Assembly (NCBI RefSeq): GCF_028368995.1
Contig: NZ_JAQNDL010000003.1
Coordinates: 224,001 to 288,000, forward strand
From: Nannocystis bainbridge
GTDB taxonomy: Bacteria > Myxococcota_A > Polyangia > Nannocystales > Nannocystaceae
Reading direction: 5' to 3'
Length of the DNA: 64,000 bases
Shown: positions 5,392 through 58,446 of the stretch, in pieces
Layout: the number at the start of each line of letters is the position of its first letter
How positions within the stretch are numbered: position 1 is the stretch's first letter
Translations under genes and position numbers: made by a program
The notes under the pieces: model-generated
Databases searched by the model: none
Seen by the model: only the letters and a program-made list of their open reading frames with translations
Told to the model about the DNA's origin: nothing

Positions 5392-7350
5392 ATGCACGAG
5401 CCGGTCGACGTGCTGATCGTGGACGACGACGAGGACGACTTCGTCCTCGCGCAAGACCTGATCGCCGACATCACGGCCAGCGAGTACCGGGTGCGGTGGA
5501 TCCAGTCCTACCAGGACGCCGTGCACGCGCTCCTGACCGCCGCGCCCGACGTCTGCCTGCTCGACTACCGGCTCGAGGCGCGCACCGGCATCGACCTGCT
5601 CCGCGAGGTCCGCGGGCTCGGCTGCGACGTCCCGATCATCTTCCTCACCGGGCAGACCGAGCGTGAGCTCGACGTCGAGGCGATGCACGCCGGCGCCGAC
5701 GATTTCCTGATCAAGGGCAGCTTCACCACCCGCGAGCTCGAGCGGGCCATCCGCTACGCCATCGAGCGCGCGGCCACCGGCGCCGCCCAGCGGCGGCTGA
5801 CCGAGGAGCTGCGGCTGATGCAGGTCCAGGCCCAGCGCTCGAGCCAGGCCAAGAGCACCTTCCTGGCCAACATGAGCCACGAGTTCCGCACCCCGCTGAA
5901 CGCCATCCTCGGCTACAGCGACATGTTGATCGATCAGGCGCGGGCCGGCGAGTTCGAGCAGATCGAGGACGACCTCAACCGGATCCGCGCCGCCGGCAAT
6001 CACTTGCTCGCGCTCGTCACCGACATCCTCGACCTCAGCCGCATCGAGGCCGGCCGGCTCAGCCTCGCGCCCGAGTCTTACACCCTCGGCGAGCTGCTGC
6101 GCGAGGTCGTCGACGCCGTCGCCCCGCTCATCCACCGCAACGGCAACCGCTTCGTCTACGCCCCCGCCGACGAGCTCGGCGAGATGGTCGCCGACGCCAC
6201 CCGCGCGCGCCAGATCCTCTTCAACCTGCTCAGCAACGCCGGCAAGTTCACGCGCAAGGGCCTCGTCTCGCTGGCCGTCACGCGCCGGCCCGCGCGGCTC
6301 AGCGACTTCAACCACCACGCCGGCGACCAGGCGATCGAGGGCGTCGATTGCGTCGATTTCGTGGTCGCCGACTCGGGCATCGGCATGACGCCCAAGCAGA
6401 TGGAGCGGCTGTTCGAGCCGTTCTCGCAGGTCGACGACACCGGCGGGCGCCGCTTCGGCGGCTCGGGCCTCGGGCTTGCGATCAGCCGCCGGCTCGCGCG
6501 GGCCATGGGCGGCGAGCTGCGGGCCCGCAGCGAGATGGGCCGCGGCTCCTCGTTTCGCCTGTCGCTGCCCTCGGACAGCACCGCCGCAGCGCGCTGGCGC
6601 GGCCTCACCCCCGAGCGGCAGTTCGCCACCGGCGAGCGCGGTCAGCTGCCGATCGTGTTCGTGCTCGGGCCGTCCGACGCGTTCGGTCGCCAGCTGCGCG
6701 ACCAATTGGCCGAGGTCCAGCTCGACATCGTCGTCGAGGCCGACCTGCGCCGCGGCGTCAAGTTGGCGCGCGCGCTCGGGCCCTCGCTGTTGGTGGTCGA
6801 GCTCAACGTCGGCTCGCCGGCCACCCTCGTCGCCCTCGGCCAGCTCGCGCGCGAGCCCAGCCTGCAGGAGGCCGACGTGTTGGTCTACCTGGTCGACGAG
6901 CCGGCCCAGTTCGGCTGCCTGCTCCACTGCGACGGGGTCGTCAGCGCCCCGCTGCAGGCGCTGCAGCTGCAGCGCCTCGTCGAGCGCCTGTCCCCGGGGA
7001 CATCTCAGCCGCTGCACCTGTGGTCAAACAGCGCCGGCCTGCTGCAGGAGGCCACCGAGATGATTCGCCACACCCGCCGGCTCGCGGCCGCCGGCGGAGG
7101 CCTCGATGCCAGCGAGCTGCACCTCGTGCACCTGGCCGCGCCGGGGGCCTCGTGGGGCCTCACCGCCGCCCGCCCCGACGCGGGCACCGGCGGGCCCGCG
7201 GTCGTGCTGGTCGCGCCCGACGACCCGCGCGCCGTCCCGCCGAGCTTCGCCGCCGAGATGCGCGCGCTCGTCGAGCAGACCGGCATCCCGCGCCAGGAGC
7301 TCGCGCGCGAGGTCAGCAGCGCGCTCGTGTCGCGCATGACCCGCGAGTGA
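5392..7350 (+). CDS. Hybrid REC-HisKA-HATPase kinase with a degenerate C-terminal receiver-like region
   Basis: N-terminal REC (LIVDDD, LLDY), FLANMSHEFRTPLN, NLLSNAGKF, DSGIGM, GSGLGL. Confidence 0.9.
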   Translation: MHEPVDVLIVDDDEDDFVLAQDLIADITASEYRVRWIQSYQDAVHALLTAAPDVCLLDYRLEARTGIDLLREVRGLGCDVPIIFLTGQTERELDVEAMHAGADDFLIKGSFTTRELERAIRYAIERAATGAAQRRLTEELRLMQVQAQRSSQAKSTFLANMSHEFRTPLNAILGYSDMLIDQARAGEFEQIEDDLNRIRAAGNHLLALVTDILDLSRIEAGRLSLAPESYTLGELLREVVDAVAPLIHRNGNRFVYAPADELGEMVADATRARQILFNLLSNAGKFTRKGLVSLAVTRRPARLSDFNHHAGDQAIEGVDCVDFVVADSGIGMTPKQMERLFEPFSQVDDTGGRRFGGSGLGLAISRRLARAMGGELRARSEMGRGSSFRLSLPSDSTAAARWRGLTPERQFATGERGQLPIVFVLGPSDAFGRQLRDQLAEVQLDIVVEADLRRGVKLARALGPSLLVVELNVGSPATLVALGQLAREPSLQEADVLVYLVDEPAQFGCLLHCDGVVSAPLQALQLQRLVERLSPGTSQPLHLWSNSAGLLQEATEMIRHTRRLAAAGGGLDASELHLVHLAAPGASWGLTAARPDAGTGGPAVVLVAPDDPRAVPPSFAAEMRALVEQTGIPRQELAREVSSALVSRMTRE

Positions 7351-7364
7351 CCCGCGAGGCACGC

Positions 7365-8535: not shown

Positions 8536-9924
8536 ATGACACGCTCTGGAATCGTCGCTCACCTGATGCGGCGCACCGCCCCCGGGCCGCGCGGCGGCCT
8601 CGTCCTCGGCAACCTCGCGGAGGTCGCCCAGGGCCGCATGTTCGAGCTCCTGCAGCATATGTGGCGGGCCCACGGCGACATCAGCTGCGCCCGGGTCGGC
8701 ACTCGACTGGTGTATCTCGTGGTCCACCCCGACCAGATCCAGCATGTGCTCGTGACGCGCCGGGAGAACTACACCAAGGCGTCGCACCGCGCCCGGCCGC
8801 TCATCGGCGACGGCCTGCCGGCCAGCAACGGCGAGCTGTGGGCCCGCCAGCGCAAGCTGCTGACCCCGCGGTTCCAGGTCGGCGCCCTGCCACAATTCGC
8901 CCCGCCGCTGCGCGGCGCCATGGAGCGCCAGCTCGGCCGCTGGCAGCAGGCGGCCGCCCGCGGCGACGAGCTCGACCTCGCCGACGAAATGATCGCCCTC
9001 ACCCTCGACGCGATCCTCGGCTCGCTGCTCGGCGAACGGCTCGACGACGAGGAGGCGCGGCTGCGCGCCGCCATCCGCGACGCCGTCGAGTTCGTCGCCG
9101 CCAGCAGCCAGCTGTTCCGCATCCCGCTGTCGTGGCCGACCCGGCGCAATCAACGTTTCCTGGCCGCCCTCGCGGTGATCGACGATTTCATCCTGCAGGC
9201 AATCGCGGCCCACCGGGACCGCCCCGCCGACGATCCTGACCTCCTCACATTCCTGCTCCGCCACGTCTCCGCCGATCCGCAAGCGCCCGACGCGGCGCGG
9301 CTGGTGCGCGACGAGGCGGTCAGCCTGCTGCTCGGCGGCCACGAATCGACCGCGCAGGCGCTGACATGGTTGCTTTATTGCCTCGACCTCCACCCGGAGG
9401 CCAGGGCGCGGGTGATGAGCGAGGTCGATACATTCGGCGACGCCCTGCCGACGGTCGCCGACCGCCAGCGCTTCCCGTTCCTCGCCGCCGCGGTGCAGGA
9501 GGCGCTGCGCCTGTACCCGCCGTTCTGGGCGTTCCCGCGCCACGTCGCCGCGGACGACGAGCTGGGCGGCTACCTCGTGCCCGCCGGCGCGACGGTGATG
9601 CTGTGCCCGTACCTCACGCACCGCCACCCGGCCCTGTGGGACGCGCCCGAGCGCTTCCAGCCCGAGCGCTTCCTCGGCGGCGTGGCCCAGGGCCGGGCGC
9701 GGGCCGCCTATCTGCCGTTCGGCTACGGCCCGCGGACCTGCATCGGCAACCACATGGCGACCACCGAGATCGTGCTGGCCACGGCGGCGATCCTGCGCCG
9801 CTTCACCGTCGAGCGCGTCCACCACGCCCCGGTCGCCCCGGAATTCTCGACGACCCTGCGACCGCGCGGCGGGATTCGCGTCAAGCTGACGTCCCGTCAG
9901 GGCGCCAGCGCCAGCTCCAGCTGA
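8536..9924 (+). CDS. Cytochrome P450
   Basis: GGHESTA I-helix, EALR (ExxR), PERF, FGYGPRTCIG heme-Cys motif; TATCCT -10-like hexamer 7 nt before ATG 8536. Confidence 0.95.
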   Translation: MTRSGIVAHLMRRTAPGPRGGLVLGNLAEVAQGRMFELLQHMWRAHGDISCARVGTRLVYLVVHPDQIQHVLVTRRENYTKASHRARPLIGDGLPASNGELWARQRKLLTPRFQVGALPQFAPPLRGAMERQLGRWQQAAARGDELDLADEMIALTLDAILGSLLGERLDDEEARLRAAIRDAVEFVAASSQLFRIPLSWPTRRNQRFLAALAVIDDFILQAIAAHRDRPADDPDLLTFLLRHVSADPQAPDAARLVRDEAVSLLLGGHESTAQALTWLLYCLDLHPEARARVMSEVDTFGDALPTVADRQRFPFLAAAVQEALRLYPPFWAFPRHVAADDELGGYLVPAGATVMLCPYLTHRHPALWDAPERFQPERFLGGVAQGRARAAYLPFGYGPRTCIGNHMATTEIVLATAAILRRFTVERVHHAPVAPEFSTTLRPRGGIRVKLTSRQGASASSS

Positions 9925-10613
9925 TCGAGAACATTGATACGATCGACCTGTGGCCAATTGTTGCGTCGTGCGATTGCCGACAGGGGCGGCCCCGCCTCGA
10001 ACACCAGGGGCCGACCGACGGCGGCGAGCACCTCGCAGTCGCCGGGGCCATTGCCCAGCGCGAGCGACCGTGACAGCCCGGCGCCGCGGGCCGCCGCGAA
10101 TGTACGTAACAATGTCAACTTGCCCCCGCGCGCCCCGGGCATGCTGTAGCATTGACCAGTGTAGCGACCGGCGTCGACCGTGAATCGCGAACCATCACAG
10201 TCGGTTACGCCCAGGTCCGCGGCCAGCAGCGCGACGATCTCGTGGGGACTGGACGACACGATATAGGGAGTTACCCCGACCTGCTCGAGCCGCGCGATCA
10301 GCGGGCGCACGAAGGCGAACAATTCACCGCGCAGCCGCTGCCACGTCGCTCGCGCCAGAGCCTCCAGCGCGGCCTGCTCCGCGCCCGCCAGCGCCGCCGC
10401 GTAGGCCGCGGTGCTGCGGGTCACCATCTCCGGGAAATCGATGGATCCAGCCCGATGCTGGCCGACCGCGGTCATCACCGCCGCCATCGCGTCGGCCCGC
10501 CCGAGCCCGTAGCGGCCCATGTCGTCGAGCAGCGCGAGCCCGATCGACCGCGGGTGCATCGTACCGTCGACATCGAGGATCGCCACGCGCCCCGCGGGTT
10601 CGTCGTACGTCAT
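9897..10613 (-). CDS. HAD-superfamily phosphatase (SerB/IB-like)
   Basis: LDVDGT motif I, IVSSS motif II, K, GNGPGD motif IV; TATGAT 6 nt before ATG 10613. Confidence 0.85.
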   Translation of the reverse strand: MTYDEPAGRVAILDVDGTMHPRSIGLALLDDMGRYGLGRADAMAAVMTAVGQHRAGSIDFPEMVTRSTAAYAAALAGAEQAALEALARATWQRLRGELFAFVRPLIARLEQVGVTPYIVSSSPHEIVALLAADLGVTDCDGSRFTVDAGRYTGQCYSMPGARGGKLTLLRTFAAARGAGLSRSLALGNGPGDCEVLAAVGRPLVFEAGPPLSAIARRNNWPQVDRINVLDQLELALAP

Positions 10614-10740
10614 GCCGCGATCATAGCGGAGCGGCGACGCATGCTCCAGACCCCAGACACGCGGGCCGCCGGATAATTCGTCGGTCCGCGCGATGGTCGT
10701 TGATCGTAACCAATAATTCGAGTAGCTCTGATCAAAGGTC

Positions 10741-12508: not shown

Positions 12509-13024
12509 GTGTGCCAGCTTGAGATCCTGCTTCTCATGTCTTCGCTTCGCCGTGAGGGCGCGCTGTGGGTCGTCGCCGACGTTTTCGAGGCCGACCTGCT
12601 GCAGGTCCGCTCGGGCACCTCGGTCAAGCTGCGCTTCCCCGCCGACCCGGAGCCGATCGCCGGCCGCGTCGTCGGCGTCGGCGGGCTGGTCGACGTCGGC
12701 CAGCGCCGCGCCCCCGTCTACATCGCGCTCACCGACGAGGCCGTCGCCTCGCGCAACCTCACCCCCGGCATGTTCGTGCGCGCCGACATCACCGGCCCCG
12801 TCGGCGTCGGCGTCACGCTGCCCAAGCAGGCCGTCCTGATCAAGGACACCGACACCGCGACCGCCTACTTCGAGGTCGAGCCCGGCACCTTCGAGGCCCG
12901 CCACGTGGTCCTCGGCCACACCTCCGGCGACCACGCGCAGATCGTCTCCGGGGTGAACCCCGGCGAGCGCGTGGCCGTGGCCGGCGCGCTGCTGATCGGT
13001 CAGCAGCTGGCGTCCCGGCCCTGA
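12509..13024 (+). pseudogene. C-terminal fragment of an RND efflux membrane fusion protein (CusB/CzcB-like)
   Basis: LWVVADVFEADL..., LTPGMFVRADI, LPKQAV, FEARHVVLG, SGVNPGERVAVAGALL; no N-terminal anchor or hairpin, no RND partner. Confidence 0.65.
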
Positions 13025-13103
13025 GGCCTGTCCGTTCGGGCATGTCGCCGAGGACATGCCCGTTCGCGCATGCCCCTACGGACATGTCCTCAGCGACACG
13101 TCC
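13024..13103. repeat. Tandem array of the 14-bp palindrome TGYCY-N4-RGRCA (5 units)
   Basis: TGTCCGTTCGGGCA TGTCGCCGAGGACA TGCCCGTTCGCGCA TGCCCCTACGGACA TGTCCTCAGCGACA, contiguous from 13029. Confidence 0.9.
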
Positions 13104-13106
13104 GTC

Positions 13107-15389: not shown

Positions 15390-15398
15390 ACCTGCTGC

Positions 15399-17010: not shown

Positions 17011-17100
17011 CCGGCGCGGCGGCCTCACGGCCGATGATCACACATGTCTATTGGGACATGTACAATCATCGGCGAGTCTGCCCGCCCAGCCGACGACGGC

Positions 17101-23738: not shown

Positions 23739-23982
23739 GCGGGCCTGCGGCGATCTGTCCCGAAAGACAGCCCGCCACCGCTGCGACCCGAGGCGTTCGC
23801 AAGGCTCCTCGCGCCCGCGACTTCGCGCCGCATTGGGGCCTCCCGAGCAGGAGTGAATGGCCGAGCGCCGACGCCGCTGCGCACGCTCGCCACACCCGAT
23901 GCGATCGGCAGCACGCGCGGCTGCGGGCCCGCGCGCGGGCCATCACTTGCCGCGCTCGCGGCCGTCTGCCAACCTCCGACGC

Positions 23983-24906: not shown

Positions 24907-25017
24907 TCACCTGTCCCTTCGGCCATGCCCCGCGCGCGCCGGAGCGGACCTGTCCGTTGGGACATCCTCACGACCTGTCGTTTACGACATGCCCCGCGGG
25001 GCATGTCCGAAGCGCCA
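24907..25017. repeat. Cluster of 14-bp palindromes TGYCY-N4-RGRCA
   Basis: Units at 24912, 24951, then contiguous 24976 TGTCGTTTACGACA, 24990 TGCCCCGCGGGGCA, 25004 TGTCCGAAGCGCCA. Confidence 0.85.
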
Positions 25018-25191: not shown

Positions 25192-26883
25192 ATGATCGTC
25201 CGTTCGACCACCGTCCTCCTCACTGCTGTCGTCTCGCTCGCCGCCTGCGGCGACGACGGGTCCACCAGCGCCAGCGACACCGCGGGCACCACCGACACGA
25301 CGGGCACCACCGACACGACCGGCACCACGGTCACCCCCGGCACCACCGACGACGATCCGACGACGGTCGCGCCGACCACGACCTCGGTCGACACCACCGG
25401 CCCGGACACCACCACTCAGCCGGTCACCTCCACGACCGACGACACCACCACGACCGACGGCACCACCACGCTCGACACCACGAGCGACACCACCACGCTC
25501 GACACCACGAGCGACACCACCGACACCACCGGCGACACCTCGACCTCGACCGGCGCCGTCGACGAGACCCCGCCTTCCGTGACCCTCGCGCGTCCGTTCG
25601 ACAACGTCTACGTGGCCAGTCGGCGGCTCATCCTCACCGGCGAGGCCAGCGACGACCTCGAGGTCGTCGCCGTCGAGCTCGTCGTCAACGGCGAGGCCCC
25701 GGTCGCGCTCCCGATCGGGCCCGGGCCGGTGCTCGAGTTCAGCGCCGACGTCCGCCTCCGCCGCGGCTGGAACTCCCTGCAGTTGATCGCCCGCGACGCG
25801 GCCGACAACACCGGCAGCAGCACGCGCCACGTCCACCTCGGCGTGCCGGTGGCCGCCGGCGGGGCCCACTCGCTCGCGGTCGTCGACGGCGCGGCCTGGG
25901 GCTTCGGCCGCAACAACGAGGGCCAGCTCGGCGCCGGCGACCTCGTCGATCACCACCTCCCCACCGCGATGATGGGCCTCGACGACGCGGTCTCGCTGTC
26001 GGCCAACCTCAACCACTCGCTGGCGGTCCTGCCCGACGGCAGCGTCAAGGTCTGGGGCCGCAACGACGAGGGCCAGCTCGGCCAGCCGCCCCCCGTCGAC
26101 GTCGCGGTCCCGGCGACCCTCGCCGGCCTGCCCGAGGTCGTGCTCGTCGCCGCCGGCCAGCGCCACAGCCTCGCGCTCACCGAGGACGGCCACGTGTGGT
26201 CGTTCGGCTTCAACAACGCCGGCCAGCTCGGCCGCGCCGGCGACTCGCTGCCCGCCGTCGTGCCCGGCCTCGAGGACATCGTCGCCATCGCCGCCGGCGG
26301 CACCTACTCCGCCGCGGTCGACGGCACCGGCGTCGTGTGGGCGTGGGGCAACAACACCGACGGCCAGCTCGGCGACGGCATGACCGTCGACTCACCTGTC
26401 CCCAAGGCCATCTCGATGGTCGACGCCGTGGCCGTCGCCGCCGGCAAGGCCCACACCCTCGCCGTCGCGCCGCTCGGCAGCCTGGCCGCCTGCGGCCTCA
26501 ACGTGTCCGGCCAGCTCGGCGACGGCCTCAGCGCCGACAACGTCCTGCTGCCGGTCGCCGTGCCCGAGTTCGCCGACCTCCTGACCGTCGCCGCCTCCGG
26601 CAACCTGTCGCTCGCGCTCGCCGGCGACGCCCAGCTGTGGGCCTGGGGCCAGAATTTCTCCGGCCAGCTCGGCCTCGGCGACAACGCCGATCGCCCCGCG
26701 CCGACGATCGTGCCCGGCCTGCCGCCCGTGCGGGCGATCGCCGCCGGCCTCGCCCACACCGTCGTGTTCGACGAGAACGGCGGCGTCTGGGCCTGGGGCC
26801 TCAACTCGTTCGGCCAGCTCGGCAAGGGCGACGCCGGCAACCCGACCAACAGCGCCGTGCCGCTGCAGGTCGCCCTGCCCTGA
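25192..26883 (+). CDS. RCC1-repeat lipoprotein with Ig-like domain and Thr-rich stalk
   Basis: LAAC lipobox; seven AAGxxHSLA...WGxNxxGQLG RCC1 repeats. Confidence 0.9.
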   Translation: MIVRSTTVLLTAVVSLAACGDDGSTSASDTAGTTDTTGTTDTTGTTVTPGTTDDDPTTVAPTTTSVDTTGPDTTTQPVTSTTDDTTTTDGTTTLDTTSDTTTLDTTSDTTDTTGDTSTSTGAVDETPPSVTLARPFDNVYVASRRLILTGEASDDLEVVAVELVVNGEAPVALPIGPGPVLEFSADVRLRRGWNSLQLIARDAADNTGSSTRHVHLGVPVAAGGAHSLAVVDGAAWGFGRNNEGQLGAGDLVDHHLPTAMMGLDDAVSLSANLNHSLAVLPDGSVKVWGRNDEGQLGQPPPVDVAVPATLAGLPEVVLVAAGQRHSLALTEDGHVWSFGFNNAGQLGRAGDSLPAVVPGLEDIVAIAAGGTYSAAVDGTGVVWAWGNNTDGQLGDGMTVDSPVPKAISMVDAVAVAAGKAHTLAVAPLGSLAACGLNVSGQLGDGLSADNVLLPVAVPEFADLLTVAASGNLSLALAGDAQLWAWGQNFSGQLGLGDNADRPAPTIVPGLPPVRAIAAGLAHTVVFDENGGVWAWGLNSFGQLGKGDAGNPTNSAVPLQVALP

Positions 26884-27348
26884 TCCGCCGCCGCGGCGCG
26901 AGGCCGGCGGGTCACCGCCGGCCTGCTCCCGTCTCGCCGCGACCACCGGCCGATGCACGCCTCTGCGAGGTCGCGGCCCCGCGCTCCGCGATCGAGCCGA
27001 GCGCGACGCCGCCGTCTCTGCCACATGTCCCGAAGCACAGATGCACGAATCTCCGCCAGCTCCGCATTCGTGCATACGCCACAGTAGGCGCGAGTAAGGC
27101 GAATCGCCTACACGCACCCCGGAATGCGGCGCGCAAATGCCACTGGGCCGCTCTGGCCTCACCGCGTTGCCTCGCGGCCTCACCAGACCGCACGCCCCGA
27201 ATAGACATAGGTCTTTTGGGACATATTCTCGCTCGTGATCGCCAAGAGCGGCGTTCTGCGGCCCGCGCGATCGCCGGGGCGCGCCCACGCCCGCGGCGCC
27301 GGGTGCACGCCCGGCGACGGCCGCGTCCTGGATGATATAGATGCAAGC

Positions 27349-35640: not shown

Positions 35641-35652
35641 GCGCGCCGCCGA

Positions 35653-35743
35653 TGGCATGTCCTTCGAGACATGCCCCCGAGAACATGCCCCCATGAACAT
35701 GCCCTCGGGGACATGCCCCAGAGCACCTGTCCTCGCAGACATC
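35653..35743. repeat. Tandem array of the 14-bp palindrome (6 units)
   Basis: TGTCCTTCGAGACA TGCCCCCGAGAACA TGCCCCCATGAACA TGCCCTCGGGGACA TGCCCCAGAGCACC TGTCCTCGCAGACA from 35658. Confidence 0.92.
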
Positions 35744-35886
35744 AAGCCGAGCCGCGCTCCGGTCGCGCGAGCACTCCCGCGACGCTCGCCCCGAGCCGTG
35801 CCGTCACAACAAGCTCACGGGACGCGGTGCAATTCGAAGACCGCCCACGGGCGGATGGACGACCTCGATCTGGTTGCGGCATCGAC

Positions 35887-39111: not shown

Positions 39112-42072
39112 TCACTTCATCGCATCCGCCACCACCTCGATCGTCGCGCCGCGCCCGAGCCCCAGCTTCACCGCCGTCCCTGCCGGTACTGCTGACATTT
39201 CCTGGAACAGATATCCATTCGCCCCTGTCACGTCCTGCCCATCGACGCTCACGATCTCGTCGCCGATCTGCAGCCCTGCGCGCATCGCCGGCCCGCCCGG
39301 GCGCACCGACCCCACGATCAGCTTCGCCTCGCCCGGCTCCGTCCCCGGGGCAGAGGGCTGCACCCGCAGCCCCAGGTCTCCCGGCGCCTCGTTCTCCGAG
39401 CGGCGCTTCTTGGCGATCCGCAGCGGCGGCAGCTCGACCGACGTAGCTCCTGTCGTCGGCAACTCGAGCGCGATCGACGACCAGCCGTACCCGTTCTCGA
39501 CCCAATCTTTCGGCAGCACCATCGCGTCGACCGGGCCGGCCGCCACCTTCTCGACCTCGAAGCGGCCCTCCGCGTCCGAAGTCTGCCCGCGCGGCGTTTG
39601 GTCGTACGGCGTGAACATCTGCACCTGCCCGCGCGCGCGGATCCGGACCTCCATCCCCGGCACCGGCTGGCTCGACGCGGCGTCGATCACTCGCCCGCGC
39701 ACTGTCAAGAGTGGCAGCAGCTCGATCTGCACCTCCGCCCGGCCGCCCTCGCCCACGCTCGTCTTGGCCGAGCTCGAGCCCTCGGCCGCCTCCACGATCA
39801 CCCTGTAGTCGCCGCGCGGCACCTCCGGGAAGCGAAACACACCACCTGTCCGAAAGAACCTGTCACTGCTGCGCCAGCCCGTGCTCGGCTCGTGCAGCGA
39901 CACCTCGAATTTCTCCGGCGCGCCCCCGCCCTGGATCCGCACCGTCCCGGCGATCGACCCAGCGTCCGCGATCTTGATCTCCACCTCGTTCCCGGTCGCC
40001 ACGTGCTCGACCGAGCCCTCGCCGCCGCCGCGCCGCTGGGCCACCAGCGTGTACTTCCCGTCGCTCAGCCCCGACAGCTCGAAGCGGCCGTCCTGGTCGG
40101 TCAGCTTGCGCGTCTCGGCCCCGAAGAACGACCACCGCGAATCGCGGAGCGCGTCGCCCATCCCTGCCGCCGGGCTGTCGCTCTCGCGCGTCGCCTCGAC
40201 GAACGCGTCCGACAGCGGCCCGCCGGCGGAGTCGACCACGCGCCCGCCGATCCGCCCGTGCTGCGACTCCACCACCAACTGCACCTCGCGCACCTCGCCG
40301 GTCGCGATCGTCACCGCCGTCCCTTGCACATCGTCGTCGGTGGTCCCCGGCGCCTGCAGCGGCACCCAGCCCTGGACCGCCTGCACCCGATACGAGCCCG
40401 CCGGCACCTGCTTCAGGCGGAAGCTGCCGTCGTCGAGCGTGCGCGTCGTCGGCAGCTCCTGCTGCTCCCCGCGCAGCGTCACCTCGACGCCCTTCACTGC
40501 CAGCCCCTCGCTGTCCTTCACCGTCCCGCGCAGCTCGCCCGTCGCCGGCAGCGTCAGCAAGATGTCCTCGAGGTCCTGTCCCGCAGGCAGCTCGACCTCC
40601 AGCGGCGGCTCCGGGCGCGGGTGCTCGTTCGACGACGCGCTCACGCGATAGCGGCCCGGCAGCAGCCCGAGCAGCTCGAAGCGGCCATCGTCCGCCGTGC
40701 GCTCCGACCACGCCCGCGTCGCCTGGGCCCGCGGCGCCGACGGATCGGGCTGCGGCTCGGCGCCGACGTGGAGCCCGCGCGCACCTGTCCCTCCGGACAG
40801 CACCACCCGACCGCGGATCGCCTGGCCCGGCTGCACCTGCCAGCGCAGCCCGCGGATCGCCGCGTCGACCACCGCCACCGGCGCGTACGTCGGCTCCGCC
40901 ACGTACGTGTCGCACTCGACCTGCGGCTCGTACGACCCCGGAAGGACCCCGCGGATCCGCACCAGCCCATCGGCCTCGACCTCGCCCGCGCGCGACCCGA
41001 CCGCCGTGTCGGTGATGCGCACCCACCCTTGCTCGCATGATTCGCCGCCCGCGACCGTGACTGTCCCTTCGACCAGGTACGCCGGATGCGCCCGGATCAC
41101 GATCGGCTCCGAAGTCTCACCCAGCCCCAGCACCGCGCTCTCGGCTCCTACCCCATAGGCCTCGTCGTGGAATGCCTCGAGTCGGTACGCCCCCGGCTTC
41201 AAGCCCTCGATGCGGAAATTGCCGTTCGTATCGCTGATCGCCTCCGCGGAGCTCTCCATGGGTTTCACCGCGAGCACGCTCGCGCCCGCCACCGGCGCCC
41301 CGTCCTCCGCTCGCACCACGCGACCGACCAGCACCGACTCCGGCGTCAACGCGATCTCGAACGTCATCCCTGGCGCCACGCCCATCATCCAGCCGCGCGC
41401 GTAGCCATCGGCGTGCGCCTCGAGGTACGCCTCGCCCGGCGCCACCCACAGCGTGAACCGCCCGTCCGCCCCCGTACGCCCGTGGGCGAAGCCCGACGAC
41501 ACCTGTGCCCCCTCGAGCTCGCCGCCGCTGAGGTCGCGCACCACTCCCTTGAGCTCGACCCCGCCGGCCAATAGCACCACATCGACCTCGCGCGTCTCCT
41601 GCCCCGCGCGCAGCGTCACCAGCGTGCGCGCGCGCTGGCCAGGACCCGCACGATACTGCCCCGGCACATGCCCCGCCGCGCTCGCGTGGACGAATTGTGG
41701 CACCGGCAACAACCCCTCGACGCGATAGCTGCCGTCGCCCGCGCTCGTCGTACACGTGCGATTCGCCTGCTCCTTGCTGTCGAGCCCCGACGCCGAGCTA
41801 CCCACACAAACCGTCGCCCCGCCGATCCCACGACCGTCCGCCTCGCGCACGCGGCCCGAGATCGCCGCCCGGTCCACCAGACGCAGATCGAGCCGCCCCG
41901 GCCCCGCCCCGTCGACGCGCGGACCGTTTGCAAACACCGGCCCACCGCCGTCCGGCGCCTCCTCCGGTCCCGCGACCTCTTCGCGGCCCCGCACCGTCCA
42001 CCACCACCCCAGGAGCAGCGCGATCACCCCGATCGCAGCCGCAGTCACGAACTTCCGTGTCGTTTGGGTCAT
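39112..42072 (-). CDS. Membrane-anchored carboxypeptidase-regulatory-like repeat protein with C-terminal PDZ domain
   Basis: N-terminal TM; repeated I.G.V....G.....A.V...T..DG.F.l.gL.pG.Y units; GPAMRAGLQIGDEIVSVDG PDZ. Confidence 0.85.
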   Translation of the reverse strand: MTQTTRKFVTAAAIGVIALLLGWWWTVRGREEVAGPEEAPDGGGPVFANGPRVDGAGPGRLDLRLVDRAAISGRVREADGRGIGGATVCVGSSASGLDSKEQANRTCTTSAGDGSYRVEGLLPVPQFVHASAAGHVPGQYRAGPGQRARTLVTLRAGQETREVDVVLLAGGVELKGVVRDLSGGELEGAQVSSGFAHGRTGADGRFTLWVAPGEAYLEAHADGYARGWMMGVAPGMTFEIALTPESVLVGRVVRAEDGAPVAGASVLAVKPMESSAEAISDTNGNFRIEGLKPGAYRLEAFHDEAYGVGAESAVLGLGETSEPIVIRAHPAYLVEGTVTVAGGESCEQGWVRITDTAVGSRAGEVEADGLVRIRGVLPGSYEPQVECDTYVAEPTYAPVAVVDAAIRGLRWQVQPGQAIRGRVVLSGGTGARGLHVGAEPQPDPSAPRAQATRAWSERTADDGRFELLGLLPGRYRVSASSNEHPRPEPPLEVELPAGQDLEDILLTLPATGELRGTVKDSEGLAVKGVEVTLRGEQQELPTTRTLDDGSFRLKQVPAGSYRVQAVQGWVPLQAPGTTDDDVQGTAVTIATGEVREVQLVVESQHGRIGGRVVDSAGGPLSDAFVEATRESDSPAAGMGDALRDSRWSFFGAETRKLTDQDGRFELSGLSDGKYTLVAQRRGGGEGSVEHVATGNEVEIKIADAGSIAGTVRIQGGGAPEKFEVSLHEPSTGWRSSDRFFRTGGVFRFPEVPRGDYRVIVEAAEGSSSAKTSVGEGGRAEVQIELLPLLTVRGRVIDAASSQPVPGMEVRIRARGQVQMFTPYDQTPRGQTSDAEGRFEVEKVAAGPVDAMVLPKDWVENGYGWSSIALELPTTGATSVELPPLRIAKKRRSENEAPGDLGLRVQPSAPGTEPGEAKLIVGSVRPGGPAMRAGLQIGDEIVSVDGQDVTGANGYLFQEMSAVPAGTAVKLGLGRGATIEVVADAMK

Positions 42073-52900: not shown

Positions 52901-52907
52901 CTTATTG

Positions 52908-55900
52908 CTACTTTCGGTAGTAGGGCACATAACCCTGGAAGTTTCGATGAAAGGCACCTGTAGGGAGATTGCTGAACGCTTCTTCGGCAGCTTTGAGAGC
53001 CCCAGTTTTTGGTTTGAAATGTCCGGAAGCGTTGTCGACCGAAAAGATTCGCCCTCCGCGGATATCGACGATTCCTGCAGCTTGCACCCTCGGATCTGCA
53101 CCGCCGATGAGAGTTGGGTGGGGCATGCGTTGACCTGCCCGAGTGCCAATTGTGATGGCGCCATGTTTATCTACGACGTACATGAATTGCCCACTTGTGC
53201 GACTGTCTCCAATCTTTCCGGTTGCAGAAAGAAGATCTGTGATCTTTACCGCCGTCGGGTTCTTGATGTACTTACCGTTGACCAGGACACCAGCAGCTTC
53301 GTCCGCAGCTTTTGTCGAGGGGTCCACGGACGATAATTTATCGCCTCCCGCTGAATATGAATCCAGCGTACTCGAAGTAGCTGTAGCATCAGCATCCTTG
53401 CGCTCAGGGCAATCTTCTCCCTCGTGCTCCTTTCCACAAACGCTACAAGTATCGAGCCCGCGCGGGTCGAACTGCACCAGCGGGCAACACGTATACGCAT
53501 AGAGGTTGAGCCCCCCGCCCGTCCCTGCCGGGTCTTCCTCGAGATACCTCCCGAGCTCCGGGCTGTAGTACCGGAACCGGTTGTAGCAGAGCCCAGTCTC
53601 CGCATCATAAAGCTGCCCCGCAAGTCGGTGCGAGACCTCGAGCTCCCCCTCGGCTTTCGCCAGCCCGTACGGTGCCAGCTCGGCCGACCACACTCGCCGC
53701 CCATCACCATCGAGCGCCGCGACGGGCGCACCGCGCTGGTCGGTGACGAGGTAGTGGAGCTTGCCGCTGCCTGGCTCGGCATCGACCGAATCATAGTCGA
53801 TCATCAGCCAGGGCGTCAGCGAGAAGTCGTCGACGTAGACGTGCACTCGCAGCCGGCCGCTGCTGTGGAGCTCGGCGGCGAGGCGGTCGGTGTCCCAGAA
53901 ATACTCGGTCCAGGCCGCGCCGAAGGTCTTGCGGACCCGCCGCCCCAGTGGGTCGTAGTCGGCCGTCCACGGCGCGTCCAGGCCCTCGATCGCCCGCAGG
54001 CGGTCGAGCGCGTCGCGCTGGAAGCGCAGCGAGCGACCGTCGCGCTCCCACTCCGCCACGTTGTTGCGACCGTCGTAGCCGAGGCTGCCGCCGTTCGCCA
54101 TCACCAGCTGATTGCCCGGCCCGATCGCCGCCGCCGGCAGGTGCGGCGCCTCGACCAGGTTGCCGGCCGCGTCGTACCCGTACGCCTCGCTCGCGCCATC
54201 AGGCCGCGTCACGCCCGCGAGCTGGTGCGCCGCGTCGTAGCGATAGCGCGTCTCGCCGCGCTCCGAGTCCTTGACCGCCAGCAGGTCACCCTCCGCCGAA
54301 TAGGCGAATCGCCGCCGCCACGGATCTTCGTTGCTATCGACGGGGAACAGGTGCTTCTCGCGCACATGCCCGCGCGAGTCGACCTGCGTCAGCTCGCGCG
54401 CCCCGCAGGCGAGGTGCCGCGTGACCACCCCGTCCGACTCGAGCACCAGGCGATGCACGTTTCCGAGTGGGTCGGTGATCTCGAGCGTGCCGGCGTCGAC
54501 CCGCTGATAGCGCGTCGTGAACCGCCCCAGCACCGTCGTCGCCTGCAGCCGGTCGGCGAGGAACGCGTGCTCCACCCCGCGCCCGTCGCGGAAGTCCTTC
54601 CGACGCCGCCCCAGCCCCGTGTACGCGAACTCGAGGGTCCGCCCCGACCACTCGATACGCGCGAACTGCCCCGCCGGCGTATAGGCGTAGCGATGCTCCT
54701 CCCCATCGGCGAGCCGGCGCACCGACTTCAGGCTGTTCTCGCCGTATTGATAGGACACCAGCAGCTGGCCGCGCGCGTCGTGCTTCGCCGTCAGGTTGCC
54801 CGCGCGGTCGTACTTGTACGATTCGACCAGCTGCTCGTAATGCCGGACCTCGGTCAGCGCGTCGCGCAGGTCGTAGCGATAGGTGTGACGATTCCCGGCC
54901 GGGTCGGTGACCGCGGCGATCTGGTCGGTCAGCGTGTACTCGTAGCGGATCGTCCGCCCGAGCGGGTCGCGGGCGAGGTTGCGCAGATTGCCGCCGGCGA
55001 ACTCGAACTCGTAACGCCCGCCGTCGTGGTCCGAATACCAGCGCACCCAGCCGTTCGGGGTGTACGCCCATCGCCGCGGCGACGGGGCCGCCCCGCGCTC
55101 TTCCACCAGCAGGCCCAGCTCGTCGCGCCGCACCTGCGCCCGCGGGTCGCGCTCGGGGAACACATGCGAGTAGATCGAAGCCCCACCCGTCAGCAGCGGC
55201 CCCAGCCCCGGCGACGCCAGCGGCGCGTTCTCGAGGATCTCCGCCGCCAGATCGCCGAGCTCGAGCTCCGCCGGCGTGCGCGGCACCCGGTGCGGCAGCG
55301 GCCCCGACGGGCTCTCGACCGGCCGAATCCCGCCGTGCGCGGTGCGCCAGGCGACGATCTCGCCGGCGGCGTCGTACACCGCGCTGCGGGTGTCGCCGCC
55401 TGCGTCTGTCTCCTGGGTCAGTCGACCCGAATCGTCGTACTCGAAGCGGCGGATCCCGCCGTACGGGTCGATGATCTCGGTGATCGACAGCGACCCGTCG
55501 TAGCGATAAAGCCAGGCCCCGCCGTCGGCCCGCGTGACCTCGGTCGCCAGCGCCTCGGGCATGTAGCGCAGCTTCACCTCGCCGTTGCGATCGTGCCCGC
55601 GCGACAGCACGCAGCGGCCCGCGCCATCATAGAAGTACTCGAACTTGTAGCCGCAGCGATCGACGCGGGTCAGCATCCGGTGCGCCGCGTCGTAGGTGAA
55701 CCGCTGCGCATGCCCGTAGCGATCGGTCGCTGCCAGCAGGTCGCCCGTATCGCCGTACTGGTAGCGCATCAGCGCCAGCGGCTGCCCCTGCGCCCGCTCC
55801 GGGTGGCGGGACAACCAGATCGTCTGCACCCGATCGCCCGCGTGCTCGATCGTCACCACGGTCACGCCGGTGGCGTCGCTGAGCCTTATCAGTCGCCCGC

Positions 55901-56378
55901 GCGCATCGTGCTCGAGCGCGATCGAACCTGTCTCCCGGGACACCCTGTGCGGGCGCGCGACCGCGGCCGGGTCCGCGACCGCGAACGCGTACTCCGTCCC
56001 GTCCGGGTCCTGCAGCACGAAGCCGCGGCCCACCGGCCTCAGCAAGAAGCGCGCGCACTCGCTGACCTCGTCGGCGGGCGCGAACGGGAACAGCACCGTC
56101 TCGCCGTTCGGCTGGGTGTAAAGCCAGCCGTCGACCACCGCCCGCAGTGTGCGATCGTACTCGTGGGTGTGGCCATGGCCGAGCGGGCCGTCGCTCAGGT
56201 CCAGCGTATTGTAGTAGCGCCGCCAGACGATCGCCCCCGCCTCCGGCGATGGCCCGAGCGGCAGCGTGAACTCGGCCGCGACATCCGCGAGCGCACCGGT
56301 GACGACGTCGACCGGATCACCGACCCATCGCAGCCCCTGGCTCGCGCCGCACCGTGGAGTTTGCCCGTCCATCGTCAT
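52908..56378 (-). CDS. rhs: Rhs polymorphic toxin (DUF6531 N-terminus, YD repeats, core, C-terminal toxin)
   Basis: GDPVDVVTG; YD repeats; GQLYDAETGLCYNRFRYYSPELGRYL...NLYAY...DPRGL cleavage motif. Confidence 0.95.
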   Translation of the reverse strand: MTMDGQTPRCGASQGLRWVGDPVDVVTGALADVAAEFTLPLGPSPEAGAIVWRRYYNTLDLSDGPLGHGHTHEYDRTLRAVVDGWLYTQPNGETVLFPFAPADEVSECARFLLRPVGRGFVLQDPDGTEYAFAVADPAAVARPHRVSRETGSIALEHDARGRLIRLSDATGVTVVTIEHAGDRVQTIWLSRHPERAQGQPLALMRYQYGDTGDLLAATDRYGHAQRFTYDAAHRMLTRVDRCGYKFEYFYDGAGRCVLSRGHDRNGEVKLRYMPEALATEVTRADGGAWLYRYDGSLSITEIIDPYGGIRRFEYDDSGRLTQETDAGGDTRSAVYDAAGEIVAWRTAHGGIRPVESPSGPLPHRVPRTPAELELGDLAAEILENAPLASPGLGPLLTGGASIYSHVFPERDPRAQVRRDELGLLVEERGAAPSPRRWAYTPNGWVRWYSDHDGGRYEFEFAGGNLRNLARDPLGRTIRYEYTLTDQIAAVTDPAGNRHTYRYDLRDALTEVRHYEQLVESYKYDRAGNLTAKHDARGQLLVSYQYGENSLKSVRRLADGEEHRYAYTPAGQFARIEWSGRTLEFAYTGLGRRRKDFRDGRGVEHAFLADRLQATTVLGRFTTRYQRVDAGTLEITDPLGNVHRLVLESDGVVTRHLACGARELTQVDSRGHVREKHLFPVDSNEDPWRRRFAYSAEGDLLAVKDSERGETRYRYDAAHQLAGVTRPDGASEAYGYDAAGNLVEAPHLPAAAIGPGNQLVMANGGSLGYDGRNNVAEWERDGRSLRFQRDALDRLRAIEGLDAPWTADYDPLGRRVRKTFGAAWTEYFWDTDRLAAELHSSGRLRVHVYVDDFSLTPWLMIDYDSVDAEPGSGKLHYLVTDQRGAPVAALDGDGRRVWSAELAPYGLAKAEGELEVSHRLAGQLYDAETGLCYNRFRYYSPELGRYLEEDPAGTGGGLNLYAYTCCPLVQFDPRGLDTCSVCGKEHEGEDCPERKDADATATSSTLDSYSAGGDKLSSVDPSTKAADEAAGVLVNGKYIKNPTAVKITDLLSATGKIGDSRTSGQFMYVVDKHGAITIGTRAGQRMPHPTLIGGADPRVQAAGIVDIRGGRIFSVDNASGHFKPKTGALKAAEEAFSNLPTGAFHRNFQGYVPYYRK

Positions 56379-57256
56379 TTACAAGTCGAGGGGCCCTGCT
56401 GATCGCCGTCGTTCTTGCCGCGTCGGCTCGGCGGCATGTCGGCCCGCGAAAGATGACGCTGGGCCATCGCCACCCCGCTCGGCACCGGAAAGCCGCCGAT
56501 CAGGACGTTCGGCATCCCGAACAGCAGCGCGCCGACCGGCGGCCCGATGCACGGGTTCTTGCCCAGCAGCATCCCGAACGCCATCGTCGCCGCGTCCATC
56601 GCCAGCTGCGCCGCTCCCATCGCGGCCGACAACGCATAGCCCTCGGCGACCGCCGGATCTTCGGCGTTCGCCGAATCGACCGCGTCGGCGACCACCCCGA
56701 CGGCCTGGGCGGCCATGCCGACGTACGGCATCACCTGCACCACCTTGTTGGCGGCCGCGGCGACCGTGGCCAGCTTGCCCGGCTTCATCCGCGTGGGCGC
56801 GGGCCAGCAATGCATGGTGACATCGAACATGCGCGCGGCCCGGGCCCCGCCGATGAACACCTTCGACGAGCCGGTGAGGATCTCGAACCCCGGCAGCGGC
56901 GCCCCGAGGCAGGTCGGATTGATTCCGACGTCGCCGGCGCGCGCGGCCGGCAACCCGTTGATCAGCACCGACACGCAGCAGCCGAGAGTCACTGCGCCGA
57001 TCACCGGCAGCGGCGTCGGCAGCGGGATATGGGCGTGCGGCAGCCCGACCGCGAGCGAGCCGATCGTCGCCGCCGGGAACTCGGGCCACACCTGCGCCAG
57101 CGCGGCCGTGGCCACCGCGAACGTCTCGTTGAACTTGTCGACCGGCGCGTTGATGGTCGCCATCACCGTGCCGATGCCCTCTTGCAGCACCCGCGCCGGG
57201 TTCTTCGGCGGCTCGGGCGGCTGCTTCGGCGTCGCCGCGAGCGACACGCGGCTCAT
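56375..57256 (-). CDS. PAAR-domain protein with hydrophobic helices
   Basis: SVLINGLPAARAGD, GSSKVFIGGARAARMFD, GMPNVLIGG; ATGA overlaps on both sides. Confidence 0.9.
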   Translation of the reverse strand: MSRVSLAATPKQPPEPPKNPARVLQEGIGTVMATINAPVDKFNETFAVATAALAQVWPEFPAATIGSLAVGLPHAHIPLPTPLPVIGAVTLGCCVSVLINGLPAARAGDVGINPTCLGAPLPGFEILTGSSKVFIGGARAARMFDVTMHCWPAPTRMKPGKLATVAAAANKVVQVMPYVGMAAQAVGVVADAVDSANAEDPAVAEGYALSAAMGAAQLAMDAATMAFGMLLGKNPCIGPPVGALLFGMPNVLIGGFPVPSGVAMAQRHLSRADMPPSRRGKNDGDQQGPSTCK

Positions 57257-58446
57257 GGCGAACCCTCCAGGAACGCCGCGATCTCGCGCCCGAGCGCCGC
57301 CGGCACGCGGCGCTGACTGCTCGACAGCCGGGGCCGCAGCTCGGCCAGCAGACCCGCGTGGGCGAGCTCGCGGGCGACCTGCGCCGCTGCCAGATAGCTC
57401 CTCCCAGCCGCCTCGTGGGCCCCGCGCAGCTCCTCCAGCCGGCCGCGCCACTGCAATGCGTGCACGTGGCTGGGCGCGTCGGGGATCGCCATGGCGAGCC
57501 GCTGCGCGCCGTCATAAAAGGTCTCGGCGTCGGCGCTGCGGCCCTGCTCGAAGTACAGCCGCGCGAGGTTCTGCGTGACCGCGAGCAGCAGCAGCGCCGC
57601 CCCGGTCTTGCTCGCCGGCACCAGCGCGCGCTCGTACCACGTAACCGCTTCTCGGCTGTCCTTTCGGGCAGCCGCGACATCACCGAGCCCGCTCAGCGCC
57701 AGCGCCGAGAGCACCGGGTTCGCGGCCGCCTCGGCCCACGAGTAAAGCTCGCGGAAGCCGGCGATCGCCTGGTCGTGGCGCCCGCTCGCCGCGTCGATCG
57801 CCGCCGACTGCAGCAGCGCCTGGGCCCGCCGCTCCGGCGGCGCCTCCGGATCGCTGGCCTCCTCGGCGACGCCCGACGCCAGCGCCGTGAGCGAAAGATC
57901 GACCGCGAGCGCGCGACACAGCCGCGGCAGCTCGCCGAGCGCCGCAGTCGGCAACGCGTGCACGAAGATCCGCAGGCGATGGAACCACGGCGGAAAGCCC
58001 GGCTCCGCCGCGACCAGGCCGCGCATGAACGCCTGCGCCTCGGCCTCGTCCTCGACCGTCAGCGGGACGAGGATGACGACCAGTCGCGGAGGACATGTCC
58101 TTTTGGGCAGGACCCGATCGCGCGTGAACTCGAGCGTCGACCGCACCCGCGCGACCGCCGATCGCGACGGATCGGAGCACGCCGCCGGCAATGCCAGCGC
58201 AGCATCACCCGAACACGAGCGGGCGACCGCCAGGCACACCTCGGCGATCGTCGCCGCATAGGCATCGGCCGACACGAACGCGTGCGGGACCGGCAAGAAC
58301 ACGTCGGCCGACCCGGCCGCGAGCTCGTGCAGCGTCGCGTGCACCCACGGCAAGAACTCGTGCTCGGCCCGCAGCACGCACATACCGTGCTCGTGGCCGG
58401 TGATGAAGCCGGCGAGGTCTTGCCCGAGTCGCTGGAGCGTGCGCAT
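57253..58446 (-). CDS. TPR-containing protein in the vgrG-PAAR-rhs operon (candidate adaptor/chaperone)
   Basis: C-terminal TPR-like repeats (ALSGLGDVA...EAVTWYERAL); translationally coupled to PAAR. Confidence 0.75.
   Translation of the reverse strand: MRTLQRLGQDLAGFITGHEHGMCVLRAEHEFLPWVHATLHELAAGSADVFLPVPHAFVSADAYAATIAEVCLAVARSCSGDAALALPAACSDPSRSAVARVRSTLEFTRDRVLPKRTCPPRLVVILVPLTVEDEAEAQAFMRGLVAAEPGFPPWFHRLRIFVHALPTAALGELPRLCRALAVDLSLTALASGVAEEASDPEAPPERRAQALLQSAAIDAASGRHDQAIAGFRELYSWAEAAANPVLSALALSGLGDVAAARKDSREAVTWYERALVPASKTGAALLLLAVTQNLARLYFEQGRSADAETFYDGAQRLAMAIPDAPSHVHALQWRGRLEELRGAHEAAGRSYLAAAQVARELAHAGLLAELRPRLSSSQRRVPAALGREIAAFLEGSP

Follow-up and report, generated by a model that had tools for sequence, protein, structure and literature searches.

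Short palindromes that are hyper-abundant within genes are known mainly from cyanobacteria, in which the highly iterated palindrome HIP1, GCGATCGC, has been described (PMC5861425, PMC4390886, PMC13756078). HIP1 is reported to be 15- to 300-fold over-represented, to occur within as well as between open reading frames (ORFs) and to be conserved beyond background; it contains the sites of two orphan methylases, and twenty years of study are said not to have shown whether it is functional, with nucleoid structure among the proposed roles (PMC5861425). Repetitive extragenic palindromic (REP) elements are described as 20-40 bp in length, with a GTAG or CGTC end tag and RAYT transposases (PMC3733652; PMC2817692), while uptake sequences are described as being present in thousands of copies, of which a third to two thirds fall within ORFs, with a frame bias and at poorly conserved residues (PMC2817400). 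PadR operators, in turn, are described as an ATGT/ACAT inverted motif with an 8-10 nt spacer (PMC3506622). Here, we describe a gapped palindrome, TGTCC-N4-GGACA, in a 64-kb stretch (G000:C2:224001-288000; hereafter the window) of an 11.05-Mb Nannocystis genome (G000; five contigs; 71.5% G+C), throughout which it recurs behind and within genes. It is possible, although we would not call it probable, that the motif represents a genome-wide DNA code in Nannocystis and two sister genera, in which thousands of sites for a putative two-fold symmetric reader of TGTCC-N4-GGACA are written behind the most strongly codon-biased genes and through approximately 7% of genes, at a cost in codon usage and amino acids. 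No published description of this motif was found, nor anything relevant for myxobacteria; palindromes go unmentioned in the N. exedens genome note and in a 2023 Nannocystis genomics paper, whose mentions of repeats do not concern DNA repeats, and the main text of PMC3733652 contains no Myxococc-, Sorangium or Deltaproteobacteria.

Genome-wide, TGTCC-N4-GGACA occurs in 1987 exact copies as compared to approximately 13 (12.8) predicted by 5-mer frequencies, an over-representation of approximately 155-fold, and near-exact copies number about 6,200. The same arms set apart by 0-3 or 5-11 bp give only 0-16 copies for each spacer length, and in a scan of all 5-Nk-5 palindromes the motif and its overlapping extensions rank at the top, the latter including ACATG-N10-CATGT (1472 copies) and ATGTC-N6-GACAT (1458 copies). 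Many cores continue outwards as RCATGTCC-N4-GGACATGY, and ATGT-N8-ACAT is present in about half of the copies. In the sequence logo, R-C-(A/C) stands 5′ and (T/G)-G-Y 3′ of the core, with symmetric flanks whose information ends 3 bp out, indicating that the motif is not the core of a longer repeat. This is in agreement with an all-against-all comparison of the 134-nt segments around the 1987 copies, in which 727 were linked, the large cluster of 498 copies representing the self-similarity of 14-bp arrays and no longer conserved element. Copies are stacked head to tail, distances of 14, 28, 42 and 56 bp standing out among the inter-copy distances, and the junction sequence GGACATGTCC (956 genome copies; 12.8 expected) has partner half-sites on both sides, forming a lattice of (TGTCC-N4-GGACA)n on a 14-bp period within which the unit centres vary. 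The motif is spread over all contigs. In the window, three exact copies (at positions 6989, 24951 and 40786 of the window) are found where 0.05 are expected from 100 shuffles, and 18 sites with at most one mismatch where 1.8 are expected (largest shuffle: 6). No Rfam family matches in the window at gathering scores.

As ORFs are open in all frames at such a G+C content, genes were called by means of a codon-usage model trained on ORFs with a high G+C content at third codon positions (GC3), giving 8156 genes that cover 84% of the genome. Pfam matches support the calls in the window, among others for kinases, a P450 and a VgrG-TPR-PAAR-Rhs cassette. On these calls, 1191 of the exact copies are intergenic, 780 (39%) are coding and 16 straddle a gene edge. 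Twenty shuffles of synonymous codons within each gene produced a mean of 22 and a maximum of 32 in-gene copies, as against the 780 present, and by codon phase the observed copies (64/274/442) likewise stand far apart from the shuffles (0.75/1.45/19.75). Three control palindromes of the same letters, by comparison, are found 2-7 times within genes where 1.5-4 are expected. The excess extends to coding sites with one mismatch (1758 versus 396-438 in five shuffles; approximately 4-fold), while two-mismatch sites show none (4103 versus 4596-4714 in five shuffles). The in-gene copies are distributed over 588 of the 8156 genes, 485 of which carry a single copy, while a few genes have 5-12 and some copies lie in coding tandem repeats; along the genes they are evenly spread, with a mild deficit in the last fifth. 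The motif is therefore a signal at the nucleotide level and no by-product of peptides or codon usage, and the proposal of the first-pass annotation, made from the window alone, that it is selected or driven independently of the protein is upheld by the shuffles. The role in chromosome architecture or self-marking that was proposed along with it stays a conjecture.

The same annotation had listed nine in-gene copies in the window, and all nine sequences are present at their positions. The copies at 6989 and 40786 are exact, and those at 26397, 55929, 57657 and 58096 have one mismatch and belong to the enriched class. A third of the list, in contrast, is too degenerate to be counted. The sites at 39847 and 40563 have two mismatches and are indistinguishable from chance, given that their class is without excess, and the site at 40577, with three, is weaker still. 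The accompanying claim that the motif comes at the cost of rare codons is borne out. Among the synonyms in the genome, ACA accounts for 2% of threonine, GGA for 3% of glycine, TGT for 10% of cysteine, CCT for 4% of proline and AGG for 2% of arginine codons, while all 274 phase-1 copies use TCC and ACA, and the exact copies contain 7.8% of the genome's ACA codons. The copy at 6989 is thus read as CTG TCC CCG GGG ACA TCT (synonym share: ACA 0.02; TCT 0.01) and that at 40786 as CTG TCC GGA GGG ACA GGT (GGA 0.03), while the copy at 26397 includes TCA (0.01) and CCT (0.04), and that at 58096 reads AAA AGG ACA TGT CCT, five rare codons in a row (0.05, 0.02, 0.02, 0.10 and 0.04, respectively).

Conservation was assessed in 1.2 Mb of the Nannocystis genome G001 and 0.4 Mb of G003, aligned to G000, with every other 14-nt stretch of the same codon phase as control and with retention defined as identity of all ten arm bases. 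In-gene copies are retained in 21 of 27 cases in G001, where 10.4 are expected, and in 5 of 9 in G003, where 2.6 are expected, the outcome that the first-pass annotation had anticipated for orthologues; of 26 intergenic copies compared with G001, 14 are retained there (control rate: 0.22). In copies whose arms agree in both species at their outer four bases (TGTC-N6-GACA), divergence of the 4-bp centre is similar to that of the flanks, both in spacers (0.21-0.42 versus 0.33) and in genes (0.10-0.15 versus 0.17). Differences between species are mostly one or two point substitutions at the same place and not indels, and the copies are, on these alignments, old, orthologous and retained between species. 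In the sister genus represented by G011 (61% G+C), the motif has 87 copies genome-wide, with eight in the 800 kb that were compared (0.68 expected). None of 19 exact in-gene copies in orthologue-like pairs with G011 is exact there, while 16 of the 19 align free of gaps, and amino acid identity over the motif codons, by a hand count, is 37/107 (35%) as compared to a mean of 54% over the same alignments. Taken together, these counts indicate that the motif overrode the protein sequence where this was tolerated. Given that an insertion of 14 bp would break the reading frame, the gap-free alignments also indicate that the in-gene copies are not 14-bp insertions; they occupy weakly constrained positions and arrived with amino acid changes.

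The strongest positional signal, of which the first-pass annotation made no use, is a pile-up of copies at gene ends that is highest between convergent genes. Exact copies have a density of 1.52 per kb in convergent spacers, 0.65 in tandem spacers, 0.19 in divergent spacers (79 genes with an upstream copy) and 0.084 in genes. Their distance to the nearest stop codon peaks at 0-25 nt, with 312 copies in the first 25-nt bin and, at base resolution, copies beginning from 2 nt past the stop onward, while the distance to start codons is flat; the 3′ side of genes has an 8-fold excess of copies over the 5′ side. Of the genes in the lowest GC3 bins, 2% have an exact copy within 100 nt past the stop, and this proportion increases with GC3, up to 15% in the top bin. 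Within genes, the density is highest in the three middle GC3 bins (0.107-0.118 per kb), is close to the genome mean in low-GC3 genes (0.082) and falls to 0.048 in the top bin. Placement thus shifts with codon bias, the genes of highest GC3 having the fewest copies within them and most often a copy shortly past the stop. The density in low-GC3 genes also bears on an earlier suggestion that accessory DNA, exemplified by an Rhs cassette in the window, acquires the motif. This is roughly right, as the one-mismatch copy at 55929 in the Rhs gene is present in three other Nannocystis genomes, in the same form in G001 and G005 and as an exact copy with another centre in G007. No clear dip in copies was found at the GC-skew switches that could indicate an origin or terminus bias. 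The 100-kb bins with few copies have a lower G+C content and a GC skew near zero, suggesting that they are islands.

The expansion follows the lineage. In a set of 73 genomes from the order, all assigned to a single family by their taxonomic labels, it is found in all 23 genomes of three genera, namely Nannocystis (g1; 11/11 genomes; 114-2090 copies), g2 (5/5 genomes; 87-169 copies) and g20 (7/7 genomes; 67-696 copies). It is absent from the remaining 50 genomes, which represent 14 further genera and have at most 20 copies (backwards control pattern: 0-10). Genomes of eight other families of the class have at most two. In G011, one copy lies approximately 35 nt past an ORF stop and another approximately 30 nt before a likely start codon (L092:14419-14645), and low-copy genomes of this kind may show the original use of the motif.

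The reading that we favour, to which we give a little under an even chance, is that of a symmetric DNA site for a putative lineage-specific factor, tied to the ends of transcription units. A sequence-specific factor of two-fold symmetry, most simply a protein dimer, would recognise the signal in double-stranded DNA, where it would touch the outer TG/CA and the inner C/G of each arm and ignore the spacer. With less weight, we suggest that copies located behind genes serve to mark transcription-unit ends or to insulate them, possibly as a roadblock or as a supercoil-handling site such as has been proposed for REP elements and bacterial interspersed mosaic elements (BIMEs). Copies within genes would be further instances of this site, retained through selection or a copy-favouring drive where the protein tolerates the five imposed codons. 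Such a reader is suggested by the strict spacer length, the free centre and the invariance of the outer TG/CA. When one-mismatch copies within 150 nt past a stop in tandem spacers are oriented by transcription, 53 mismatches fall on the outermost pair, 13 on the second (G-C) pair, 313 on the middle and 335 on the loop-closing pair. The outer pairs are near-invariant and the middle and loop-closing pairs tolerant, which is the reverse of what stem stability would predict. G-U mismatches (234) are not in excess over A-C mismatches (209), and in 434 motif-bearing tandem spacers the sense strand folds better in 192 cases and worse in 238 (G-U pairs: 1034 versus 1122), while motif-free 3′ spacers lean to the sense strand (399 versus 359). 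Both strands hence behave alike, which we read as palindromy at the DNA level, possibly through fold-back copying or arrays of symmetric sites, and not as selection on RNA.

Several observations weigh against a symmetric DNA site. In convergent spacers, the flanks of the core covary (odds ratio: 7.35 at -1/+14), the flank triplets being ACA/TGT in 142 and GCA/TGC in 81 copies as compared to 35 and 31 mixed combinations, and 16.3% of convergent copies have a stem that runs on for 5 bp or more, as compared to 3.0% in shuffles; within genes, extended stems are rarer than in shuffles. The covarying flanks and the hairpins formed by arrays indicate that pairing or fold-back copying plays a role in some members of the family. 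An RNA 3′-end element, too, could be expected to cluster this closely behind stop codons. No reader protein was found for the putative site, and we know of few precedents for a protein with thousands of specific sites, including sites within genes, in a single lineage. Furthermore, the coding and intergenic assignments rest on our own gene calls, some of which will be wrong, and the orthologue tests cover the aligned parts of G001 and G003 and not whole genomes.

Three candidates for the identity of the site or its reader were considered, of which the first two were rejected. The half-sites are arranged much as in operators of dimeric helix-turn-helix proteins, and the ATGT/ACAT form would fit a PadR-type regulator, but the profile PF03551 had no match among 13 scored candidates; no PadR-family gene was found in this 11-Mb genome, while the same search matched all 14 control genomes. 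Canonical parS-like sites, which differ in arm length and centre, form a cluster of their own, with eight palindromes, six of them exact GTTCCACGTGAAAC, within 2 kb (C1:4343337-4345347). The GC skew of contig C1 changes sign near this cluster, which is hence probably an origin-proximal partition region. Finally, the N6/N4 methylase profile PF01555 does not discriminate, as it is found in all 73 genomes of the order and so cannot single out the motif-rich genera.

An RNA element is an unlikely alternative to a DNA site; on this view, the copies behind genes would act in the transcript, as hairpins for termination or for protection of the mRNA 3′ end, with the in-gene copies as weak relatives. 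The peak at 0-25 nt past stops, the decrease in density from convergent over tandem to divergent spacers, the extended covarying stems in convergent spacers and the rise of occupancy behind genes with GC3, a rough proxy of expression, would all be in line with it, as would the window arrays, which fold far better than shuffles (z -5.4 to -7.0). No T-run follows the stem on its 3′ side, however, as would be a feature of intrinsic terminators. G-U mismatches are not in excess, the sense strand is not the more stable one, and the loop length is fixed at four. A mismatch in the middle pair is tolerated and one in the outer pair is not, and 39% of the exact copies are found within genes, in which extended stems are less frequent than shuffling would give and the fold at 6989 is unremarkable. 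Equally unlikely is self-marking by molecular drive, whereby import or recombination would prefer fragments with the motif, as for uptake sequences, and no single site would be of benefit. The share of copies in genes with its phase bias would be as in uptake sequences as described (PMC2817400), and the low amino acid identity at motif positions (37/107 versus 54% gene-wide), the scarcity of copies in 100-kb bins of low G+C and skew and the presence of the motif at lower copy number in related genera are what drive would lead to. The reading frames of the motif nevertheless require rare codons, whereas uptake sequences are reported to go with preferred ones (PMC2817400). The 8-fold excess of copies on the 3′ over the 5′ side would not be predicted by tolerance alone, and the in-gene density in low-GC3 genes is near the mean. 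It also counts against drive that, to our knowledge, no uptake sequence is a gapped palindrome and that we know of no competence or sequence-biased uptake in Nannocystis.

A miniature mobile element, be it of the REP/REPIN type or some other small hairpin mobilised by a transposase, with insertions both behind genes and in frame within them, we regard as more improbable than either of these. It would account for a lineage-specific sequence with hundreds to thousands of copies in clusters and arrays behind genes and for the two outer-stem sub-families (ACA/TGT and GCA/TGC) that outnumber their mixed forms. Intragenic REPs have been recorded in several species, and CGTC-type REPs are described without a known transposase (PMC3733652). 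The Y1 (RAYT/IS200) transposase profile PF01797, however, has no match in G000, while the control search matched 6 of 14 genomes, and it is found in none of the 23 motif-rich genomes but in 20 of the 50 others of the order. The stem has no one-sided tag, its flanks being symmetric, and no inverted-terminal-repeat family starting with the motif was found at a spacing of 0.4-6 kb. Forty-three motif-starting pairs with at least 20 of 24 matches have no recurring distance, and the perfect pairs belong to two extensive inverted duplications close to one end of contig C1. Motif clusters flank 27 genes on both sides, and the 20 of these (up to 454 aa) that were scanned against Pfam are unrelated ordinary genes; eight have no match, and the others include a lipid synthase membrane domain, histidine kinases, a LytTR response regulator, imelysin, DUF58 and an ABC-2 permease. 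Together with the gap-free alignment to the sister genus (16/19), in which a 14-bp insertion would break the frame, and the prevalence of point substitutions at orthologous places, the missing Y1 transposase, tag and terminal repeats make insertion-based spread unlikely for present-day copies. Type IIA topoisomerases cut with a 4-bp stagger, and a preferred cleavage or binding site of gyrase, with the arms flanking the stagger at places behind and between genes where positive supercoils accumulate, is a further alternative, of slightly lower probability still. The strictly 4-bp, sequence-free centre between symmetric arms would fit, as would the enrichment between convergent genes and behind high-GC3 genes. 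Gyrase is known for weak and broadly shared sequence preferences, which counts against this; for a sharp motif restricted to three genera, a conserved enzyme would have had to change in this lineage, and the retention of in-gene copies would be left unexplained. On the other side, REP and BIME elements are described as binding several proteins, and REPs have been hypothesised to act in supercoiling (PMC2817692, PMC3733652). Lastly, some copies do lie in coding tandem repeats, a few genes have 5-12 copies and the gene calls are home-made, all of which would suit the absence of any DNA-level signal, the copies being due to a common peptide, a repeated protein domain or wrong calls. This is next to impossible, as it is contradicted by the shuffle and orthologue tests: the codon shuffles preserve every peptide and yet give 22 copies where 780 are present, 485 of the 588 host genes have a single copy, and the flanks are without sequence information beyond 3 bp. 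The strong phase bias indicates that the host reading frames are real, and both exact in-gene copies of the window lie in Pfam-domain genes that are conserved across five species.

This end of contig C1 contains two nested sets of perfect inverted matches (C1:4521802-4526825 and 4531063-4534856), symmetric about approximately 4,524,300 and 4,532,960, which are either large inverted duplications or fold-back assembly artefacts.

In the window, 12 of the 18 near-exact copies are intergenic, and every one of these lies 3′ of genes (Table 1).

Table 1. Motif copies and related sites in the window, with their host genes or spacers.
Site	Position	Host gene or spacer (strand)	Remarks
Exact in-gene copy	6989..7002	Hybrid histidine kinase/response regulator gene 5392-7350 (+)	
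Array of four one-mismatch units, 14-bp lattice	13029..13098	Between convergent genes 12509-13024 (+) and 13107-13814 (-)	
One-mismatch copy, extended stem	17045..17058	Convergent spacer 16321-17010 (+) / 17101-18051 (-)	
One-mismatch copy	23756..23769	M23 peptidase gene 22320-23738 (+)	18 nt past stop
One-mismatch intergenic copy	24912-24925		Near exact copy 24951
Exact intergenic copy	24951..24964	Gene 23998-24879 (+)	72 nt past stop
One-mismatch in-gene copy	26397..26410	RCC1-repeat gene 25192-26883 (+)	TCA CCT GTC CCC AAG GCC
One-mismatch copy	27026..27039	RCC1-repeat gene 25192-26883 (+)	143 nt past stop
Three one-mismatch units	35658..35741	Convergent spacer between 34744-35640 (+) and 35887-37278 (-)	
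Two-mismatch site	39847..39860		One exact half-site; rare codons AGG, TTT, ACA, GGT
'Tandem pair', two and three mismatches	40563..40590 (40563, 40577)		Only TGTCC half-sites exact
Exact in-gene copy	40786..40799	CarboxypepD_reg/PDZ gene 39112-42027 (-)	
One-mismatch in-gene copy	55929..55942	Rhs gene 52908-56378 (-)	
One-mismatch in-gene copy	57657..57670	TPR gene 57253-58446 (-)	
One-mismatch in-gene copy joined to exact GGACATGTCC junction	58091..58109	TPR gene 57253-58446 (-)	

At 6989, all 14 bases are the same in G001 and G003 although the flanks differ, and the local fold is no better than that of shuffles. The gene carrying the copy at 40786 has orthologues in N. exedens DSM 71, N. punicea FL3 and Nannocystis sp. 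RBIL2 at approximately 86% DNA identity, and in these three as well as in G001 and G003 all 14 bases of the copy are the same, while overall identity is approximately 82-86%. The copy at 26397 retains its left half-site and its one-mismatch right half in G001 and G003, and the weaker sites at 39847, 40563 and 40577 each retain one exact half-site in orthologues, that at 39847 being partly retained in four species. The copy at 57657 is retained in G001 and G005 and degenerate in G007, and the composite site at 58091-58109 is retained in G001 and G005 but not in G007.

The array at 13029-13098 is, as a whole, a long DNA palindrome in which the centres of mirrored units pair as well, and an array is present at the same place in G001 and G003, with differing units. 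Its surroundings (13020-13105) fold at -45.5 kcal/mol on the plus and -52.2 kcal/mol on the minus strand (z -5.4 and -7.0, respectively). A second long palindrome with pairing mirrored centres spans 35645-35750, where the minus strand forms a 26-bp stem (-60.5 kcal/mol; z -5.6), and the copy at 17045 folds at -25.7 kcal/mol (z -6.3). In both arrays, RNA of the minus strand would fold far better than that of the plus strand, owing to G-U pairs (-52.2 versus -45.5 and -60.5 versus -35.7 kcal/mol), a strand preference that tandem spacers do not show genome-wide. The sequencing runs that match parts of the window comprise DNA of soil, urban and rhizosphere metagenomes and one unlabelled run, with no RNA run among those listed.

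Two gene clusters of the window may be noted in their own right. The TPR and Rhs genes belong to a type VI secretion system (T6SS) cassette on the minus strand, which encodes VgrG (58453-60741), a TPR protein (57253-58446), PAAR (56375-57256) and an Rhs protein with DUF6531 (52908-56378). The region 55700-58400 is present in three of the five other Nannocystis genomes searched and was not found in G003 and G010, suggesting that this part of the T6SS is accessory. A P450 gene (8566-9924) adjoins genes for a HAD hydrolase and a squalene-hopene-cyclase/prenyltransferase-repeat protein (10741-12381), and this region (8566-12381) may constitute a small terpenoid locus.

Should a transcription-unit-end site of this kind be real, the motif would be a second, independent HIP1-like selected palindrome, and one clearly linked to where transcription units end, a possibility to which we give an appreciable chance without expecting it. 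This link could then make the long-open question of the role of such motifs testable, since the Nannocystis case offers a sharp geometry, a strong gene-end bias and a copy number graded from 67 to 2090 across three genera, and culturable hosts exist in N. exedens DSM 71 and N. punicea FL3. The motif and its arrays are also a strong lineage marker; they affect gene calling and primer design and are of relevance when Nannocystis genes, many of them interesting for natural products, are expressed in other hosts.

The motif shares features with each of the systems outlined above. With the operators of dimeric winged-helix regulators such as PadR it has in common the two-fold symmetry, the free spacer and the strict distance between arms, but its thousands of copies lie mostly away from promoters, in a genome where no PadR gene was found. 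As in the uptake sequences of the Pasteurellaceae and Neisseriaceae, there are thousands of copies, many of them in ORFs, with a frame bias and at poorly conserved residues, which are scarce in likely foreign DNA and shared by related genera at different copy numbers; unlike these, the Nannocystis motif is palindromic and gapped and uses rare rather than preferred codons. REP, BIME and REPIN elements are likewise built on a short-looped palindromic unit, whose sequence is species- or genus-specific and which is present hundreds to thousands of times, and they too have clusters that fold into larger structures and some intragenic units. Their extragenic location, mostly downstream of genes between tandem or convergent ORFs, has a partial counterpart in Nannocystis, where 1191 of the 1987 exact copies (60%) are extragenic and 780 coding. 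The core of the Nannocystis motif is, however, shorter, at 14 bp, and the unit is fully symmetric, with neither a GTAG/CGTC tag nor a Y1 transposase in the motif-rich genomes, and the 39% of exact copies that lie in genes arose by substitution rather than by in-frame insertion. From HIP1, a contiguous 8-mer of cyanobacteria with no reported 3′ bias, the motif differs in its sequence and its gapped 5-N4-5 form with a free centre, in its 14-bp lattices and long palindromic arrays, in its strong polarisation to the 3′ side of genes and in its occurrence in three genera of the Nannocystaceae (Myxococcota). Like HIP1, it is over-represented well beyond 15-fold (1987 versus 12.8 copies; approximately 155-fold), is present both within and between ORFs beyond coding expectation (780 versus 22), is conserved above background in genes (21/27 versus 10.4) as well as in spacers (14/26 versus a rate of 0.22) and is lineage-wide.

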